Source: an archaeon (GTDB taxonomy: Archaea; Nanobdellota; Nanobdellia; SCGC-AAA011-G17; GW2011-AR20). From it: a stretch of 64,000 bases of DNA. The stretch lies in NCBI GenBank assembly GCA_002688355.1, contig NZCT01000025.1:27175-91174 (forward strand), read 5' to 3'. Under the pieces are notes generated by a model. That model did not search any database. It was not told the DNA's origin and saw only the letters and a program-made list of their open reading frames with translations. Position numbers and translations under genes: made by a program. This document shows, piece by piece, positions 4,390 to 55,719 of the stretch. Every line of letters begins with the position of its first letter. The first letter of the stretch is position 1.

Positions 4390-5207
4390 AAATAAATATA
4401 CTAGATTTAACAGGAAAAGAAATTAAAAAAATAGATACTCCTGAACAATTTAATGAAGAATATCATCCAAATTTAATCAAAAGAGCAGTTCAAGTAATTC
4501 AAGCTAATAAGAGATCTGCATATGGTGCAAAACCTAGGGCAGGGAAAAGATCTTCATCTAAATTATCAAGAAGAAGAAAAGATTACAAAGGTGCATATAA
4601 CCACGGAATGTCAAGAGTCCCAAGAAAAGTATCTTGGAGAAGGGGAATGCAGTTTGGATATGTTGGAGCATGGGCACCTGGAACTGTTGGAGGTAGAAAA
4701 GCACATCCACCAAAAGCAGAAAAAATCTGGTCAAAAAAAATAAACATAAAAGAAAAAAGAAAAGCTATTAGATCATCTCTATCTGCAACACTAAATTTAG
4801 AAATAATAAAAGAAAGAAATGAAATAGTTCCTAAAAATTTTCCATTTTTCGTATCTTCAGATGTAGAAGATTCAAAAAAGACAAAAGAAGTTTTAACATT
4901 CTTAAATAAATTAGGGTTTAAAGAAGAATTAGAAAGATCTAGTAAAAAAAATGTAAGAGCAGGAAAAGGTAAAATAAGAAATAGGCCTTACAAAAAGAAA
5001 TTAGGTCCTTTAATCGTTGTTTCAAAGAAATGTTCATTACTAAAATCTGCATTAAACTTGCCTGGAGTGGATATAGTGGAAATTAAAAACATAAATTCAG
5101 AATTGTTAGCACCTGGAACTCAACCTGGTCGTTTAACACTTTATACTGAAAATTCAATAGAAATTCTAAACAAAGAAAGATTATTTCTGGACAAAAATAC
5201 AAAATGA
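4386..5207 (+). CDS. rpl4: Ribosomal protein uL4
   Basis: L4/L1e-like sequence and operon position; overlaps the L3 stop (ATGA). Confidence 0.85.
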   Translation: MKINILDLTGKEIKKIDTPEQFNEEYHPNLIKRAVQVIQANKRSAYGAKPRAGKRSSSKLSRRRKDYKGAYNHGMSRVPRKVSWRRGMQFGYVGAWAPGTVGGRKAHPPKAEKIWSKKINIKEKRKAIRSSLSATLNLEIIKERNEIVPKNFPFFVSSDVEDSKKTKEVLTFLNKLGFKEELERSSKKNVRAGKGKIRNRPYKKKLGPLIVVSKKCSLLKSALNLPGVDIVEIKNINSELLAPGTQPGRLTLYTENSIEILNKERLFLDKNTK

Positions 5208-5474: not shown

Positions 5475-6188
5475 ATGGGAAAACCCTTAATTCAACAAAG
5501 ACGTGGAAAAGGATCTATAAGATTCAGATCACCTAGTCATAATTATAAAACAAAGATAAATTTCCCTACCATAAATGAACCTATGTTGGGAATAGTAGAA
5601 GATTTTATTCATGATTCTTCTAAAAATGCACCTGTAGCAGAAGTTAAATTTAATAATAAGGAAAAAATTTTCCTACCAGCTATAGAGGGTCTAAAAATAG
5701 GAGACAAAATTAATTATCTAAATAAGAATAAAGCTAAAGGTAGTATATTAAGATTAAAAGAAATTGCAATAGGTGCTAATATTTCCAGTATAGAGAAAAT
5801 ACCAAACTCTCCTCAAGGTTCTTTCTGTAGATCTGCAGGATCAACTGCAACAATTTTTGCAAAAACAAAAAAATCAATTACAATTTTATTTCATTCAAAA
5901 AAGAAAAAAACATTTCATCCAGAGTGTAGAGCTATGTTAGGGATAGTCGCAGGATCTGGAAGATTAGATAAACCAATCGTTAAAGCTGGAAAGAAACATC
6001 ACATGATGAAAGCTAGAAATAGATTCTGGCCTAAAGTTTCTGGTGTTTCTATGAATGCAGTAGCACATCCATTTGGTTCTGGAAGAGGAAAACATTTAGG
6101 AAAACCAAAAACACCGCCAAGATTTGCATCACCTGGAAGAAAAGTAGGTCAAATCCACGCAAAGAGAACAGGAAGGAAGAACAAATAA
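5475..6188 (+). CDS. rpl2: Ribosomal protein uL2
   Basis: MGKPLIQQRRGKGS...; C-terminal GKHLGKPKTPP. Confidence 0.9.
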   Translation: MGKPLIQQRRGKGSIRFRSPSHNYKTKINFPTINEPMLGIVEDFIHDSSKNAPVAEVKFNNKEKIFLPAIEGLKIGDKINYLNKNKAKGSILRLKEIAIGANISSIEKIPNSPQGSFCRSAGSTATIFAKTKKSITILFHSKKKKTFHPECRAMLGIVAGSGRLDKPIVKAGKKHHMMKARNRFWPKVSGVSMNAVAHPFGSGRGKHLGKPKTPPRFASPGRKVGQIHAKRTGRKNK

Positions 6189-6189
6189 A

Positions 6190-6585
6190 ATGGCTAAAGA
6201 ATTTACTTACAAAGGTCACAATCTAGAACAATTAAAGAAAATGGAAGTAGAAGAGCTAATGAAAATAATGCCTTCTAGTAAAAGAAGATCTTTGAAAAGG
6301 GGATATTCAGAAGAACAAAATAAGCTTCTTAAAAAAATAGACAGAGTAATAGAAGGATCTTATAAAAAACCAATAAAAACTCATTGTAGAGATATAATTA
6401 TAATCCCAAAAATGGTTAATTTAACAATTCATGTTCATAAAGGAAACGCATTCATCCCTGTACATATTGCTCCAGAAAGCATTGGAATGTACTTAGGAGA
6501 ATTAGTTCTAACAAGACAAAGAGTTCAACATTCTGCACCAGGGGTTGGAGCAACAAAATCAAGTGCTTCTGTATCTGTAAAATAA
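6190..6585 (+). CDS. rps19: Ribosomal protein uS19
   Basis: RRSLKRGYSEEQNKLLKKI, GHN/HVHKG motifs. Confidence 0.85.
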   Translation: MAKEFTYKGHNLEQLKKMEVEELMKIMPSSKRRSLKRGYSEEQNKLLKKIDRVIEGSYKKPIKTHCRDIIIIPKMVNLTIHVHKGNAFIPVHIAPESIGMYLGELVLTRQRVQHSAPGVGATKSSASVSVK

Positions 6586-40476: not shown

Positions 40477-42921
40477 ATGACAACATTAAAAAACTATTTC
40501 TCTTTACTAATTAAAACAAAAATGGATTTTAAGAAAATAGAACAAAAATGGCAAGAAAAATGGGAACAGGACAAAGTTTTCAAGTCCATAGAAGATAAGA
40601 AAAAGAAATTCTATTGCCTAGAAATGTATCCCTACCCAAGTTCGGCTGGGCTGCATATGGGTCATGCATTGAATTATGGCATAGGAGACATATATGCTAG
40701 ATTTAAACGAATGAACAATTTTAACGTTTTATACCCGATGGGCTTTGACTCATTTGGTTTACCTGCAGAAAATGCAGCTATTAAAAATAATTCTCATCCA
40801 AAATTATTCACAGAATCAGCTATCAAAAATTATATTAAGCAAATGAAAGCTCTTGGTTTAAGTTATGATTGGGACAGAACCTTAATGAGCCACGATCCTA
40901 ATTACTACAAATGGAATCAGTATTTCTTTATTAAATTCTTGGAAAATGGATTAGCATCCAAAAAAAAATCAAGTGTAAATTGGTGTCCAGATTGTAATAC
41001 TGTTTTAGCAAACGAACAAGTAAATGAAGGTAAATGTTGGAGACACAAAGAAACAGAAGTTCAAATAAAACAATTAGAACAATGGTTCTTGAACACAACA
41101 AAATATGCTGATGAACTCCTTAAAGATATTGAAAAGTTAAATTGGCCAGAACGTATTAAAATAATGCAGAAAAATTGGATTGGTAAAAGTCACGGTTCTG
41201 AAATAATATTCAAAATTGAAGATGAGGATTGGAAAATATTCACAACAAGACCAGATACATTATTTGGAGTTACGTTTATGGTTATCTCTGCTCAACATAC
41301 AAAATTAATGTTCTTAGTTACAGAAGATCAAAAAGCAGAAGTTGAAACTTTCTTAAAAAAATTAAATTCAACAAAGGATGAAGATATTGATCAATTAGAA
41401 AAAGAAGGGGTTTTTACAGGAACTTATGCACAACATCCATTAACTAACGAAAAGATTCCAATTTATGCAGGAAACTTTGTCTTAGCTGAATATGGTTCTG
41501 GGATGATCATGGCAGTTCCTGGACATGACAAAAGAGACTTAGAGTTTGCAAAAAAATATGACTTACCAATTAAAGAAGTAATAAATGATTCTAATATTTT
41601 AATTAATTCAAAAAAGTTCAATGGTTTAACAGCTGAAGAAGCCAAAGATAAGATTACAAAAGAATTACAAAATAAAAATCTAGGAAAAAAAACAATTCAA
41701 TTCAAGATTCGTGATTGGCTAGTCTCAAGACAAAGATACTGGGGAACTCCTATTCCAATTATTTATTGTGATTCTTGTAATATAGTTCCAGTTCCAGAAA
41801 AAGACCTACCGGTTATACTCCCTGAAGATGTTAAATTTGGGGAAGGAAATCCATTAGAAACAAATGATGAATTTTTAAACGTTACTTGTCCAAAATGTGG
41901 CAAAAACGCTAAAAGAGAAACAGATACAATGGATACTTTCTTTGATAGTAGTTGGTATTTCTTAAGATACACAGATAACAAAAATAACAAAAAACCTTTT
42001 GAGAAAAGTAAAGTTGATTATTGGTTACCTGTTGATCAATATATTGGAGGAGCAGAACACGCAGTAATGCATTTAATTTATGCAAGATTTTTTACAAAAG
42101 CTCTAAGAGATTTAAAATTCCTAAATATAGATGAACCTTTTCCTAAATTATTTAATCAAGGGATGTTACATTTAGATGGTTTTGTTATGAGTAAAAGTAG
42201 AGGTAATGTTATCCTACCAGAAACTGTTTCAGAAAAATATGGGATAGACACAGCCAGATTATTTTTAGTTTCAGTAGCCTCTCCAGATAAAGATACAGAA
42301 TGGAATGAAAAAGGCGTAGAAGGAAGTCTAAGATTCATTAATAAAATCTTCAATTATTTTGAAACTGTTAAATTTGGAAAATCAAGTAAATCTCTAGAAA
42401 GTAAATTGAATAAAACTATTATAGATATATATGAAGATATTGAAAACTTTAGATATAATTATGCTGTCATTAAAATTAGAGAATTATTCGATTCGTTTGA
42501 AGAAGAGATTAATAAAAAAGATTTAGAATCTTTCATTAAAATATTAAGCCCTTTCTGTCCACACATCTCAGAGGAATTATGGGAAAAATTAGGAAATAAA
42601 ACATTCATCTCAAAAGAATCTTGGCCTAAAGCAGATAAAACTAAAATTAATAAAAAATTCGAAGAACAAGAAAAAATCTCAAATAATTTAATTAATGATA
42701 TAATTCATGTTGTAAACATAATAAAATCCAAAGGAAAGCAACCTGGAAAAGTTTATGTTTACGTTATCCCAAAAGAATTAACTCTTTACAATAAAGAATA
42801 TCTTGAAAAGAAATTAAACATAACTTTAGAAATTTATTCAGTTGCAGATCCAAAAAAACATGATCCTGAAAACAAATCTAAAAAAGCTAAACCAGGAAAA
42901 CCAGCACTATATGTAGAGTAA
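40477..42921 (+). CDS. leuS: Leucyl-tRNA synthetase (archaeal type, compact)
   Basis: HMGHALNYGIGD (HIGH), VMSKSRGNV (KMSKS), CPxC zinc motifs. Confidence 0.9.
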   Translation: MTTLKNYFSLLIKTKMDFKKIEQKWQEKWEQDKVFKSIEDKKKKFYCLEMYPYPSSAGLHMGHALNYGIGDIYARFKRMNNFNVLYPMGFDSFGLPAENAAIKNNSHPKLFTESAIKNYIKQMKALGLSYDWDRTLMSHDPNYYKWNQYFFIKFLENGLASKKKSSVNWCPDCNTVLANEQVNEGKCWRHKETEVQIKQLEQWFLNTTKYADELLKDIEKLNWPERIKIMQKNWIGKSHGSEIIFKIEDEDWKIFTTRPDTLFGVTFMVISAQHTKLMFLVTEDQKAEVETFLKKLNSTKDEDIDQLEKEGVFTGTYAQHPLTNEKIPIYAGNFVLAEYGSGMIMAVPGHDKRDLEFAKKYDLPIKEVINDSNILINSKKFNGLTAEEAKDKITKELQNKNLGKKTIQFKIRDWLVSRQRYWGTPIPIIYCDSCNIVPVPEKDLPVILPEDVKFGEGNPLETNDEFLNVTCPKCGKNAKRETDTMDTFFDSSWYFLRYTDNKNNKKPFEKSKVDYWLPVDQYIGGAEHAVMHLIYARFFTKALRDLKFLNIDEPFPKLFNQGMLHLDGFVMSKSRGNVILPETVSEKYGIDTARLFLVSVASPDKDTEWNEKGVEGSLRFINKIFNYFETVKFGKSSKSLESKLNKTIIDIYEDIENFRYNYAVIKIRELFDSFEEEINKKDLESFIKILSPFCPHISEELWEKLGNKTFISKESWPKADKTKINKKFEEQEKISNNLINDIIHVVNIIKSKGKQPGKVYVYVIPKELTLYNKEYLEKKLNITLEIYSVADPKKHDPENKSKKAKPGKPALYVE

Positions 42922-50604: not shown

Positions 50605-51324
50605 ATGAAGAATTTTAATGATATAGTGAAGCAACTTATCAAAGAGATTATCAACGAAAAAGGCGTTTCTCTTTATAATTTTATATGGAATAAACGAAAT
50701 GTATCAGAATTTGTGATTTCTGAAGTTCTAGAAATAACAGTAAATCAAGTAAGAAATATCCTGTATCAATTTTCTGCTTATAATTTAGTTTCCTTTACTA
50801 GGCAAAAAGATAGAGAAAAAGGCTGGTATATCTATTATTGGACTATAAACTTTAACGAAGTACGATCATTATTAGTTCAAAGAATGAATGTTAATTTAAA
50901 CTCTCTATATAATGAATTAAAAACAGAAAAAGACAATAAATTCTATTATTGTGAACGTGACGGTTCTAAATTAGAATTGGAAGAAGCAATGGCCTTTAGC
51001 TTCAAATGTCCTGAGTGTGAAGATATTTTAGTCAATCTTCCAAATACTAAGAGAATTGAATCTATTGGAAGTGAAATAAAAGAAATTAAACAAGATCTAG
51101 AAAATATATCTAAAGATGATTTCGTTAAAGAAATAACTTCCCAACAAACAGAAGAAGGATTACCTAAAGAAAAATCTAAAAGAAGAAAGAGAAAGACAAC
51201 TAAGAAACCTACTAAAAAGAAAGCAAAGAAGACCAAGAAGAAAGTAGCTAAAAAGAAACCTAAAGTAGCTAAAAAGAAAGTAGCTAAAAAGAAACCTAAA
51301 AAATCAAAGAAAAAGAAAAAATAA
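50605..51324 (+). CDS. tfe: Transcription factor E (TFIIE alpha homologue) with K-rich C-terminal tail
   Basis: Winged-helix N-terminus, zinc ribbon YYCERDGSKLE...FKCPECEDIL. Confidence 0.75.
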   Translation: MKNFNDIVKQLIKEIINEKGVSLYNFIWNKRNVSEFVISEVLEITVNQVRNILYQFSAYNLVSFTRQKDREKGWYIYYWTINFNEVRSLLVQRMNVNLNSLYNELKTEKDNKFYYCERDGSKLELEEAMAFSFKCPECEDILVNLPNTKRIESIGSEIKEIKQDLENISKDDFVKEITSQQTEEGLPKEKSKRRKRKTTKKPTKKKAKKTKKKVAKKKPKVAKKKVAKKKPKKSKKKKK

Positions 51325-53021: not shown

Positions 53022-53132
53022 TTTACAATATTTAAATTAACAAATCTTTTATACATTATTGTATTTTAGAATATACTTTAAACAAAACTTTTTTTACGTT
53101 AAATATATAAATTAATATGATTTAACAATAGT

Positions 53133-53333
53133 ATGGAAGTTAAAGTAATTTTAGAAAAACAAAAAGAAGGCGGTTACACAGTTTACGCTCCTTCATTATC
53201 AGGTTGTATTTCTCAAGGTGAGACAAAAGAAGAATCTCTAAAGAATATAAAAGAAGCTATAGAGTTATACTTAGAAGTTGATGAAAATGAAATAATTGTA
53301 TATGAAGGGGAGATTGCTGAAATTATAGTATGA
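53133..53333 (+). CDS. hicB: HicB-family antitoxin
   Basis: KQKEGGYTVYAPSLSGCISQGETKEESLKNIKEAIELYLE. Confidence 0.75.
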   Translation: MEVKVILEKQKEGGYTVYAPSLSGCISQGETKEESLKNIKEAIELYLEVDENEIIVYEGEIAEIIV

Positions 53334-53545
53334 AGCTTCCACAAATTTCTGGAAAAGATTTGATTAAAATTCTACGTAGAAATGGTTTTGTTGTTGTAAG
53401 ACAGAAAGGATCACATATAAGATTAGAGAAAAATACTGAAAAAGAAACTATTAAGATTACAGTACCAAATCATAAAACTATAAAAAAAGGAACATTAAAT
53501 CAGATTATAAAAGTATCAGGGTTAAAAGAAGAAGATTTGATATAA
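53330..53545 (+). CDS. hicA: HicA-family toxin (mRNA interferase)
   Basis: LIKILRRNGFVVVRQKGSHIRLEK...ITVPNHKTIKKGTLNQIIK; 4-nt overlap with hicB. Confidence 0.75.
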   Translation: MKLPQISGKDLIKILRRNGFVVVRQKGSHIRLEKNTEKETIKITVPNHKTIKKGTLNQIIKVSGLKEEDLI

Positions 53546-53546
53546 A

Positions 53547-53957
53547 ATGAAAAAAACTCAAAGCGCAGGTGGAATTGTTCTTTCTAGTAAAGGATTAATC
53601 TTAGTTGTAAATCAAAAAGGAACTTCTTGGTCTTTACCAAAAGGACATATTGAAAATAATGAAACTCCAATAGAAGCAGCAAAAAGAGAGATCTATGAAG
53701 AATCTGGAATAAACGAGCTAGAATTAATAAAAGAATTATCAACATACCAAAGACATAAGATAGGACTTCGCGAAGATGAAGATAAAACAGAATTAAAAAC
53801 AATTCAAATGTTCTTATTTAAAACAACCCAAGAAAACTTAAAACCAATTGACCCACACAATCCAGAAGCAAGATGGGTTCCCAAAGATAAAGTAGAAAAT
53901 TTACTAACACATAAAAAAGATAAAGAATTTTTCTTAAATCATATTAATGAAATATAA
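53547..53957 (+). CDS. NUDIX hydrolase
   Basis: Perfect Nudix box GHIENNETPIEAAKREIYEESGI; start 1 nt after the hicA stop. Confidence 0.85.
   Translation: MKKTQSAGGIVLSSKGLILVVNQKGTSWSLPKGHIENNETPIEAAKREIYEESGINELELIKELSTYQRHKIGLREDEDKTELKTIQMFLFKTTQENLKPIDPHNPEARWVPKDKVENLLTHKKDKEFFLNHINEI
53907..53957 (+). repeat. 51-bp direct repeat, copy A (3' end of the nudix gene)
   Basis: acacataaaaaagataaagaatttttcttaaatcatattaatgaaatataa; 49/51 identical to 54471-54521. Confidence 0.8.
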
Positions 53958-54012
53958 CAATATTATTTTAAGCTTCGATAGAATTAAATAGATAATAATT
54001 TTTATTGATGAC

Positions 54013-54450
54013 ATGAAACCAAAGTTTCTTTATCATGGAAGCAATGCATTGATTAAGGAAAAATTTCTCAAAGAAAATACACCTACGGACAAGACTTCTA
54101 TTCATAATTATTTTTTTGGTGTTTACGCAACTGACAATAAGGATATAGCAAAAGGAATGGCTTTGGCTGGTTTTAGATTTACAAAAAGCTTTGGAGATTA
54201 TTCTAAAAAACCATTTAAAATTATTTTTGTTAGAGGAAAACCAAAAGGAAGATTTGTATATGTGTACAAAGTTTCATCATCATCATTTATTGAAAATCCA
54301 AAAAGATCGCATCAATGGATTTCTAGGAAAAATGTTAAAATCATTAATGTTGAAAAATTTTCAGTTGATTCTTTAAAGGAGTTTTGGCGAGGGGCAACAG
54401 CAAAAGAGAAATTGTGGTACTATAAACAGAAATCTAAAAGTTCAAGATAA
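54013..54450 (+). CDS. Small ADP-ribosyltransferase-fold (PARP/Tpt1-like, H-G-S type) protein, putative
   Basis: FLYHGS (cf. PARP LLWHGS, Tpt1 LYHGT) followed about 30 aa later by YFFGVYATD (cf. PARP GKGIYFAD). Confidence 0.35.
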   Translation: MKPKFLYHGSNALIKEKFLKENTPTDKTSIHNYFFGVYATDNKDIAKGMALAGFRFTKSFGDYSKKPFKIIFVRGKPKGRFVYVYKVSSSSFIENPKRSHQWISRKNVKIINVEKFSVDSLKEFWRGATAKEKLWYYKQKSKSSR

Positions 54451-54470
54451 ATGGACATAAGAGTAAATAT

Positions 54471-54521
54471 ACACATAAAAAAGATAAAGAATTTTTCTTA
54501 AATCATATTAGTGAAATTTAA
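54471..54521 (+). repeat. 51-bp direct repeat, copy B (duplicate of the nudix 3' end)
   Basis: acacataaaaaagataaagaatttttcttaaatcatattagtgaaatttaa. Confidence 0.8.
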
Positions 54522-54585: not shown

Positions 54586-55332
54586 ATGACAAAAGATATT
54601 AAAAAGTGGTGGAATGAAGTATCAAAGAGTTATCAAATAGATTCAAAGATTAGAACTAAATCTGCCCACTACGGTCCATATTCTCCAGATGAAAAAAAGC
54701 TTAAATTGTTAGGAAACGTTAAAGGTAAAAAAATTTTAGAAGTTGGTTGTGGGGGTGGACAATGTTCTATTGCATTTGCAAAACAAGGAGCAAAATGTAC
54801 GGGTTTAGATTTGTCAAAAGAACAACTTAAGCATGCAGAAGAACTAGCAAAAAAAGAAAAAGTTTCAGTAAAATTTCTTAAACATGATATACAGACACTT
54901 AAAGGAATTAAATCAAAAGAGTATGATATTGTTTTTACTGCTTTTGCCCTACAATATATCCCAAATCTTACAAAATGCTTCAAGGAAGTGCATCGAGTCC
55001 TAAAAAGAAATGGTTTATTTGTTCTAAGTTTAGATCACCCTTTCTTCATGGTGATAGACACAAAAACAAACAAAATTAAAAGAAGTTATTTTAAAACAGG
55101 AAAAATAGAAGAAATTGATGTTTGGCCAGATAGTAGTAAACATAAATTTGTAATTTATAGAAGAAAGATAAGTGATATCTTTAATAGTTTAACTGAAGCT
55201 AAATTTTTTGTAGAGAAAATAATAGAGCCCTTATCAAAAAATGCAAAATCATGGAAATGGGAAGAAATTTATCCAAAAGAACTAGTTAAATTAGTTGGTC
55301 CAACAATAATTTTCAAAACAAAAAAGAAATAA
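54586..55332 (+). CDS. Class I SAM-dependent methyltransferase
   Basis: ILEVGCGGGQCSIAFAKQGAKCTGLDLS. Confidence 0.75.
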   Translation: MTKDIKKWWNEVSKSYQIDSKIRTKSAHYGPYSPDEKKLKLLGNVKGKKILEVGCGGGQCSIAFAKQGAKCTGLDLSKEQLKHAEELAKKEKVSVKFLKHDIQTLKGIKSKEYDIVFTAFALQYIPNLTKCFKEVHRVLKRNGLFVLSLDHPFFMVIDTKTNKIKRSYFKTGKIEEIDVWPDSSKHKFVIYRRKISDIFNSLTEAKFFVEKIIEPLSKNAKSWKWEEIYPKELVKLVGPTIIFKTKKK

Positions 55333-55362: not shown

Positions 55363-55719
55363 TTAAACTTCTTCAACACCATCTTTTGTCAATGCTAAAA
55401 ATCTTATGCCAATTCCTAATTTCAATAAAGCAGACATTAACGCCATATGTTCTTTCCCAGTTCCAGAAACAAAATTCACAGCAACTTCTGATTCTTGAAT
55501 TCTTTTGCCTAGTTTTTCTTTAATCTCATCTCTTAATTCAATTAAACCTTGACCCATATTAACATTTATCAATTCTGTTTTATCATTACTATTAAAATTC
55601 TCCTTCCCATAATCATTAGTTATCAAATAAATTTTAGTCCATTCTTGATCTTGCATTAATCTAGCTACATGGCCCCAAGTTCCTTTTCCAGTTGATAAAC
55701 AAGCTATTAATTCTGCCAT
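55363..55719 (-). CDS. Hypothetical conserved small protein
   Basis: ORF; GKGTWGHVARL and VSGTGKEHMALMSALLKLG segments. Confidence 0.3.
   Translation of the reverse strand: MAELIACLSTGKGTWGHVARLMQDQEWTKIYLITNDYGKENFNSNDKTELINVNMGQGLIELRDEIKEKLGKRIQESEVAVNFVSGTGKEHMALMSALLKLGIGIRFLALTKDGVEEV

Follow-up and report, generated by a model that had tools for sequence, protein, structure and literature searches.

Several described systems resemble parts of the locus reported herein. HicAB modules are type II toxin-antitoxin (TA) systems that consist of a HicA toxin domain and an adjoining cognate HicB antitoxin domain, and DarTG, a TA system with an ADP-ribosyltransferase (ART), consists of a DarT domain and an adjoining macrodomain antitoxin. 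The rifampin ADP-ribosyltransferase Arr is often a mobile gene cassette. In the ART superfamily, H-Y-[E/D/Q] defines the PARP/diphtheria-toxin clade, in which motif I, Hx[ST], is located on strand beta-1 (PMC7955679). In the present study, we analyzed a 64-kb stretch of DNA (hereafter, the window) with a GC content of 28% from a Tara Oceans archaeon metagenome-assembled genome (MAG; locus tags CL617_...). We focused on positions 53133-54521, which contain hicB and hicA, a NUDIX hydrolase gene, and an open reading frame (ORF) encoding a 145-aa protein (ORF145). The initial annotation proposed that these genes form one ADP-ribosylation-linked TA/defense module. We consider it likely that the interval is, instead, a mosaic: a NUDIX gene resident in a Woesearchaeota-like DPANN archaeon, around which the other genes were acquired independently. 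The four genes are arranged as follows:

53133-53333, + strand: hicB, 66 aa
53330-53545, + strand: hicA, 71 aa, overlapping hicB by 4 nt (ATGA)
53547-53957, + strand: NUDIX gene, 136 aa, starting 1 nt past the hicA stop
54013-54450, + strand: ORF145, 145 aa, starting 55 nt past the NUDIX stop, with FLYHGS and GVYATD

The ORF coordinates, the hicB/hicA overlap, the 1-nt and 55-nt gaps, and the FLYHGS and GVYATD motifs were all exactly as previously described. The adjacency of hicBA and the NUDIX gene, on the conservation of which the proposed module depended, was not conserved. In a tblastn screen of 84 NUDIX-ortholog loci with 3-kb flanks using HicA, HicB, and ORF145 of the window, none of the three was detected at any locus (0/84), and the Pfam-annotated NUDIX contexts did not contain HicAB. 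The syntenic locus of Woesearchaeota RIFCSPHIGHO2_02_FULL_32_10 (L051) comprises Orc1 (66% identity), a 100-nt intergenic region, the NUDIX gene, and a convergent gene for a 118-aa protein (ORF118; 90%), with no hicBA, ORF145, or methyltransferase gene. Two other loci (L106 and L108) carry the same 66-aa HicB and HicA pair, with the nearest HicA homologs being 80% identical. One of the nearest hicBA pairs is located in a VapBC/HicBA/MazE island and the other between unrelated genes, and a NUDIX gene follows neither. ORF145 homologs were examined at 15 further loci, and a narrow-alignment search gave 13 metagenome loci. Except for generic class I methyltransferases, no neighbor recurred across the 15 loci, and the homologs never adjoined NUDIX or HicAB at the loci examined. 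Their immediate neighbors encoded a permease, GNAT, a tRNA synthetase, a RidA-like protein, an epimerase, and others, none of which is related to ADP-ribose. An S-adenosylmethionine (SAM) methyltransferase was considered as a partner because it occurs near ORF145 at 4 loci; however, these proteins are only 27-31% identical to the methyltransferase of the window, which corresponds to generic class I similarity, and the candidate was rejected.

These results bear on the possibility that hicB-hicA-NUDIX and the ART ORF constitute one conflict or nucleotide-signaling module. The ART would then use NAD+ or act on a target, with ADP-ribose products handled by NUDIX and HicA serving as the RNase effector. 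This explanation accounts for the operon-like tight spacing, the ART fold of ORF145, and a weak match of NUDIX to a PADLOC defense candidate (PDC-S07). However, the adjacency was kept nowhere among the loci sampled, L051 being syntenic without the extra genes; ORF145, for which no recurring partner was seen, is located on a separate insert that brings its own leader; NUDIX resembles an ApnA hydrolase and not an ADP-ribose pyrophosphatase; and none of HicA, HicB, and ORF145 is covered by a PADLOC model. The single-module explanation is largely refuted by the absence of conservation, and we regard it as very improbable.

The boundaries of the insert carrying ORF145 are marked by a direct repeat of the NUDIX 3' end, as follows:

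53907-53957, + strand: direct-repeat copy 1, the true final 16 NUDIX codons and stop (ending in HKKDKEFFLNHINEI and the stop)
53958-54470, + strand: ORF145 cassette, a 513-nt insert with a leader containing the TATA-like ATTAAATAG, ORF145, and an approximately 20-nt tail (GGACATAAGAGTA...)
54471-54521, + strand: direct-repeat copy 2, a non-coding NUDIX 3'-end remnant (ending in HKKDKEFFLNHISEI and the stop)

The two copies are identical at 49/51 positions, a match for which the chance expectation is 0, and copy 2 differs from copy 1 by one non-synonymous and one synonymous change. This 51-nt repeat is the sole high-identity direct repeat in the window. Its second copy ends at 54521, the end coordinate of the interval in the initial annotation, in which the duplication was not remarked. 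DNA homology to three loci in unrelated contexts of other genomes (L001, L090, and L091; approximately 80% identity) extends from 53963 to 54450/54460 only, namely, the insert between the repeats. The stretch shared with these loci starts 50 nt 5' of the ORF145 ATG, and the ATTAAATAG box approximately 25 nt before the ATG is conserved, which would fit an archaeal TATA box and leaderless transcription. Because of this conserved leader and its box, ORF145 is likely to be an independent transcription unit. We infer that the cassette was inserted right after the NUDIX stop and that the insertion duplicated the final 51 nt of the NUDIX gene. The cassette-free site would be expected to read ...AATGAAAT(A/T)TAA joined directly to AGCTTTGTTATTC.

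The cassette did not show an anomaly in GC content or in GC content at third codon positions (GC3), and it was found neither in viral contigs, by the narrow-alignment search, nor in plasmid and phage collections, by tblastn. A 38-nt similarity at 42512-42547 is located inside the leucyl-tRNA synthetase gene and was judged to be due to chance. Signs that the repeat continues past 51 nt, and that the cassette leader resembles the sequence after copy 2, were both too weak to count. Short-read MAG assemblies may mis-join at repeats, such that an assembly artifact could account for the 51-nt repeat and thereby for the cassette. However, misassembly is unlikely because the identical hicB-hicA-NUDIX-ORF145 order was recorded on 4 contigs; moreover, the repeat copies differ at 2 positions and homology to other genomes ends at the cassette boundaries. 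An artifact is scarcely credible in our opinion.

An upstream insertion is also suggested for hicBA by the first of the following two features:

53022-53132, + strand: Orc1/hicB intergenic region, with an A/T-rich TATA-like stretch approximately 20-35 nt before the hicB ATG
53111-53128, - strand: 18 nt matching the 51-nt repeat core in inverted orientation (17/18; TTGTTAAATCATATTAAT; TTCTTAAATCATATTAAT), just 5' of the hicB ATG

The region 53022-53132 aligns with the Orc1-NUDIX intergenic region of L051 and may represent the ancestral promoter region of the NUDIX gene. Because the upstream region of NUDIX in L051 aligns with that of hicB in the window, hicBA appears to separate the former NUDIX promoter from the NUDIX ATG. 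We consider it likely that NUDIX was the ancestral gene between Orc1/Cdc6 and the conserved 118-aa gene, and that a hicB-hicA cassette was inserted between its promoter and its start codon. Because hicBA would have been inserted there, hicB-hicA-NUDIX are probably co-transcribed, and this co-transcription would be owed only to the insertion site. With at most 1 mismatch, the 18-nt core occurs in the 64 kb only at 53111-53128 (- strand), 53931-53948, and 54495-54512, and its inverted copy is absent from L051.

The HicB product matched Pfam PF15919 (HicB_lk_antitox; 3.2e-10, 40.7 bits vs. a 27-bit cut-off) and PHROG 497 (HicB-like), and is a short antitoxin. The HicA product matched Pfam PF07927 (HicA_toxin; 7.7e-21, 74 bits vs. 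a 27-bit cut-off) over the full length of the model (1-58/58). HicA had 268 homologs, with many of the named ones being from Woese-, Pace-, and Nanoarchaeota, and a second hicA copy with 83% identity was found in the same MAG. hicBA is a multicopy, mobile module and is predicted to act as a conventional RNase-toxin/antitoxin addiction system.

The NUDIX product belongs to the NUDIX superfamily (Pfam PF00293; 7.7e-19, 68.5 bits), and the NUDIX box, GHIENNETPIEAAKREIYEESGI (consensus GX5EX7REUXEEXGU), is readable in its translation. More than 2,200 homologs with 60-73% identity were found in DPANN, the candidate phyla radiation (CPR), Melainabacteria, Omnitrophota, Acidobacteriota, and others. 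Over the window and the loci L006-L089, the family, which also occurs in MAGs of Gammaproteobacteria, is 57-73% identical and lies in unrelated gene contexts. Copy 1 of the repeat retains the C-terminal INEI present in many orthologs. The C-terminal motif LLTHKKDKEFF is strictly kept in the family; such conservation, or transfer, is unusual for NUDIX proteins. The public annotation of this protein as an ADP-ribose pyrophosphatase is a generic label. The best solved relative was the Ap4A hydrolase of Aquifex aeolicus (3i7u; E 2e-12), followed by other ApnA hydrolases. No NCBIfam equivalog reached its cut-off (NudE scored 27.9 vs. 169), and no curated ADP-ribose pyrophosphatase model was near; these cut-offs and the best PDB relative argue against placing NUDIX in the ADP-ribose pyrophosphatase subfamily. 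The initial suggestion that NUDIX acts on ADP-ribose derivatives was not supported and, because NUDIX resembles an ApnA hydrolase and not an ADP-ribose pyrophosphatase, the biochemical rationale for pairing it with an ART was removed. We consider NUDIX to be a resident housekeeping-type hydrolase, the substrate of which is possibly a dinucleoside polyphosphate. At one locus (L103, 1993-2514), a macrodomain gene is located two genes upstream of a 72%-identical NUDIX ortholog; this case is isolated among more than 85 contexts.

Structure prediction for 54013-54450 indicated an ART fold for ORF145, so the lack of such a fold cannot be held against the initial annotation. The AlphaFold2 model, obtained with an alignment of 18 homologs, had a mean predicted local distance difference test (pLDDT) score of 92.3 and a predicted template modeling (pTM) score of 0.86, and displayed the split beta-sheet of the ART fold. 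Pfam matches were sub-threshold only, namely, DUF3990 (0.006) and ART-PolyVal (0.016), and covered the motif I-II region. DUF3990 belongs to the Pfam ADP-ribosyl (ART) clan, and ART-PolyVal is among the known ART domain families (PMC7955679). ORF145 did not match an NCBIfam, PHROG, or PADLOC family, and its matches in BFVD were all uncharacterized viral proteins. A profile search of 1.84 billion representatives yielded 450 clusters of the ORF145 family at E<=1e-3 and 136 at E<=1e-10, mostly stand-alone proteins of 130-160 aa.

Conservation was counted in an 83-member alignment with a mean column identity of approximately 25%. Motif I (H8 in 82/83, G9 in 82/83, and S/T10 in 77/83) is located in the first strand (5-10), and motif II (Y38 in 79/83, with F in 4) in the second strand (36-40), which is followed by a helix (43-51). 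Position 101, which opens a later strand (101-104), is Q in 72 members and E in 9 (11%). F92 (83/83) and Y85 (75/83) are also kept. ORF145 thus has the features of the H-Y-[EDQ] clade, with motif I on strand 1 and a Tyr motif II on strand 2 plus a helix, and H8-Y38-Q101 is the putative triad. The PARP/Tpt1-type signature reported earlier stands as an ART fold with H-Y-[EDQ] motifs; membership in PARP or Tpt1 does not, because neither Pfam family was matched. We concluded that ORF145 is an ART at the fold level and probably also at the active-site level. DUF6886 (PF21820) gave sub-threshold matches in 36 of the 83 members (best 1.8e-6), with one member, P0164, scoring 20.0 bits, below the 27-bit gathering threshold. 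ORF145 itself did not match DUF6886, and no literature on DUF6886 was found. The ORF145 family is likely to be distantly related to DUF6886. In distant members (P0181, P0174, P0264, P0281, P0286, and P0279), an ORF145-type domain is fused to a Zeta-toxin/AAA_33 kinase, NTP_transf_5, a cytidylyltransferase-like domain, NT5C, and GNAT, and such domains also occur inside giant, polyvalent-protein-like proteins of 1,200-1,600 aa.

ORF145 may alternatively be a catalytically dead or non-transferase ART-like protein, such as an NAD+/ADP-ribose binder or pseudoenzyme. The Gln in motif III of 72/83 members, the minimal size of the protein, the lack of a sequence match to characterized ARTs, and a 42%-identical homolog with Tyr in place of the motif I His are in agreement with this possibility. 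However, H, Y, and Q/E are strongly conserved in a family that is otherwise this divergent, and Glu is present in 9/83. Some active ARTs have a non-acidic third residue, as in the PARP10-type H-Y-I. Furthermore, the H-Y-[EDQ] clade explicitly includes Gln (PMC7955679). A loss of activity, therefore, appears unlikely to us. Based on its fold and size, the lack of a conserved partner, and the fusion partners of its relatives, we regard ORF145 as a probable stand-alone mono-ADP-ribosyltransferase that depends on NAD+. It would act alone, perhaps on a small molecule or nucleic-acid end in a manner similar to Arr or Tpt1. We favor a non-toxic modifier over a classical toxin because ORF145 has no conserved partner (an immunity protein, macrodomain, or NADAR), has the size of Arr, is carried by a single-gene cassette, and has relatives fused to domains that modify small molecules or nucleotides (kinase, nucleotidyltransferase, and GNAT).

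Three loci provide observations on how such cassettes may move. At L001 (5878-7215; GCA_053533595.1, JAIYMU010000124.1), a 77%-identical ORF145 homolog belongs to an array of small ORFs located at the end of the contig, between which four copies of an approximately 80-nt intergenic repeat are spaced by 552-582 nt and then by 126 nt. Each repeat comprises three short hairpins, the first of which is the conserved palindrome ACATAAYnnnGTTATGT. The second has a GC-rich stem showing compensatory changes and a loop reading TTTAY, and the third is small. A partial copy of this repeat is present 5' of the cassette in L090. The homology between the window and L001 begins right after ...GCGCAGAG/TTATTTT and stops inside the next palindrome, and the right end of the window cassette keeps an ACATAA half-site. 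The L001 palindrome, ACATAAYGNTGTTATGT, was not enriched in the window and was absent from the other 107 loci, and the repeats had no match in Rfam. A resemblance of this palindrome to dif (11-6-11; PMC2958812) could not be established.

At L004 (4682-6487; JGI Ga0335114_10495687), and likewise at L005, an amino-acid permease gene has its 3' end (ending in GMIIYWVTKKFH and the stop) represented three times: the true end (4682-4715), a 78-nt copy with 91% identity (5506-5583) 5' of a neighboring 95-aa ORF, and a 34-nt copy with 100% identity (5941-5974) directly 5' of the ORF145 homolog. A perfect 35-nt repeat (5478-5512 and 6453-6487) is interleaved with these copies and overlaps with the stop codon of an NTP-transferase gene in convergent orientation. 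At L099, a 246-aa Xer-like tyrosine recombinase gene (34-774; Phage_integrase, 5.5e-48) is located directly upstream of, and co-oriented with, the gene (809-1234) for the 42%-identical homolog described above, in which motif I reads LFYGS.

The ORF145 cassette may be moved by site-specific recombination through a dedicated system that resembles integrons, Xer, or tycheposons, with a recombinase supplied in trans and the 51-nt repeat being attL/attR. Discrete cassette boundaries common to three contexts, the covarying stems of the L001 hairpin-repeat array together with the ACATAA half-site in the window, the permease 3' end repeated before two successive cassettes in L004, and the recombinase in L099 are in favor of such a system. 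Nevertheless, it appears doubtful: a non-exhaustive search did not identify a recombinase close to the cassette of the window; no sequence relationship links the repeats of the window, L004, and L001; the L001 palindrome lacks enrichment in the window or other loci; and the L001 repeat, without an Rfam match, is unlike the single long attC hairpin. The NUDIX 3' end was duplicated at none of the 86 other NUDIX loci and, thus, is not a recurrent att site. Three routes of insertion are candidates: att-type integration by a recombinase acting in trans, homologous integration of the Campbell type by small circles that carried a piece of a gene end, and illegitimate recombination that left a scar. 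A broader and speculative proposal, to which we attach a low probability, is that ORF145 genes are the cargo of an undescribed DPANN cassette system, either with an integrase in trans or homology-driven, in which 0.5-kb units would be inserted at gene 3' ends with 30-80-nt repeats (the window and L004), hairpin-repeat arrays would be possible (L001), and the cargo would be a new Arr-/Tpt1-like H-Y-Q mono-ART modifying a small molecule or nucleic-acid end.

Several points weigh against the mosaic interpretation and the assignment of ORF145 as an ART. The tight spacing (the 4-nt overlap and 1-nt gap) and the predicted co-transcription also fit a genuine operon, and local co-option is conceivable. 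NUDIX showed a near full-length match to the PADLOC single-gene defense candidate PDC-S07 (2.6e-10, 38 bits); however, this match is no stronger than generic NUDIX similarity. Very divergent HicA or HicB homologs may have been overlooked by the tblastn screen. The insertion of the cassette was deduced from the repeats and synteny and not observed. Regarding ORF145, Foldseek support for the ART fold was weak (Arr, E 0.04), and two profiles searched against PDB sequences did not link it to a solved ART. The spatial convergence of H8, Y38, and Q101 is presumed from the motifs, and Q in place of E at motif III may indicate low or altered activity.

The archaeal affiliation is supported by the flanking genes Orc1/Cdc6 and TFE (Pfam), and the nearest relatives of several window genes are from Woesearchaeota or Pacearchaeota. 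Two further genes are located downstream of the cassette:

54586-55332, + strand: class I SAM-dependent methyltransferase (Pfam Methyltransf_11, 2e-23), between NUDIX and ORF118
55363-55719, - strand: ORF118, a 118-aa protein without a Pfam or NCBIfam family

The methyltransferase gene is missing from the syntenic L051; it is another lineage-specific gene outside any system. ORF118 is 90% identical to its Woesearchaeota counterpart, although Orc1 there is only 66% identical, which suggests a very strongly conserved protein. The TFE (TFIIE-alpha) homolog (50605-51324) has a C-terminal tail of approximately 55 aa that is nearly pure lysine, alanine, and proline (KKPTKKKAKKTKKKVAKKKPKVAKKK...).

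The proposed ADP-ribosylation-coupled TA system was unsupported and is not worth following as such. On the other hand, a compact (approximately 140 aa) ART-fold family with approximately 450 clusters, an H-Y-Q/E triad, and no partner gene would extend minimal ARTs, such as Arr and AcrIF11. Moreover, the probable single-gene insertion at a gene 3' end with a long target duplication, a clean example with a parallel in a second genome, bears on accessory-gene gain in very small DPANN genomes.

In comparisons with known systems, the window hicBA corresponds to HicAB type II modules with a short archaeal HicB/UPF0150-type antitoxin: the HicA toxin domain and the adjoining cognate HicB antitoxin domain are both present, the genes overlap, and the module is multicopy and occurs in variable contexts, including TA islands. 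It differs in that the antitoxin gene comes first, HicB is just 66 aa without a DNA-binding domain, and a third gene is present at the window only through the putative cassette insertion upstream of NUDIX. NUDIX resembles small NUDIX ApnA hydrolases (3i7u and Thermus Ndx1) in its full-length alignment (1-130 vs. 1-123), size, and canonical NUDIX box; however, it does not reach an NCBIfam equivalog cut-off.

The cassette shares with integron cassettes and with att-bounded arrays of cargo at the 3' ends of genes or tRNAs a single promoter-proximal ORF, a size of approximately 0.5 kb, and varied contexts. Similar to att-bounded arrays, gene-3'-end direct repeats flank the cassettes in the window and L004, and the array in L001 is separated by repeats. 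However, unlike integron cassettes, the approximately 20-nt tail in the window lacks an attC-like long hairpin, the repeats differ between loci, and no integrase was identified, although a dedicated search of the window was not performed.

Similar to Arr, ORF145 is a stand-alone minimal ART-fold protein of approximately 140 aa on a cassette. However, it has no sequence similarity to Arr and no Arr-ms Pfam match, and its motif III residue is Q, whereas that of Arr is D. Tpt1/KptA belongs to the H-H-h clade of the ART clan; in contrast, ORF145 is a single 145-aa domain without an N-terminal RNA-binding lobe, has Tyr and not His in motif II, and showed neither a PTS_2-RNA Pfam match nor the two-lobe architecture with H-H-h / R-H-R-R. 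ORF145 did not match PARP (PF00644) even at E up to 1, and the similarity is at the fold level only. DarTG and other ART TA systems are similar in that an ART-fold protein occurs in a neighborhood containing a TA module, although the combination of a DarT domain and an adjoining macrodomain antitoxin was not found. All scores of the ORF145 family against DUF6886, DUF3990, and ART-PolyVal were below the gathering cut-offs. We concluded that the HicAB and NUDIX parts are of already known kinds, and that ORF145 represents a family that is new and without annotation, belongs to the known ART superfamily, and is distinct from PARP, Tpt1, DarT, and Arr in sequence or defining features.

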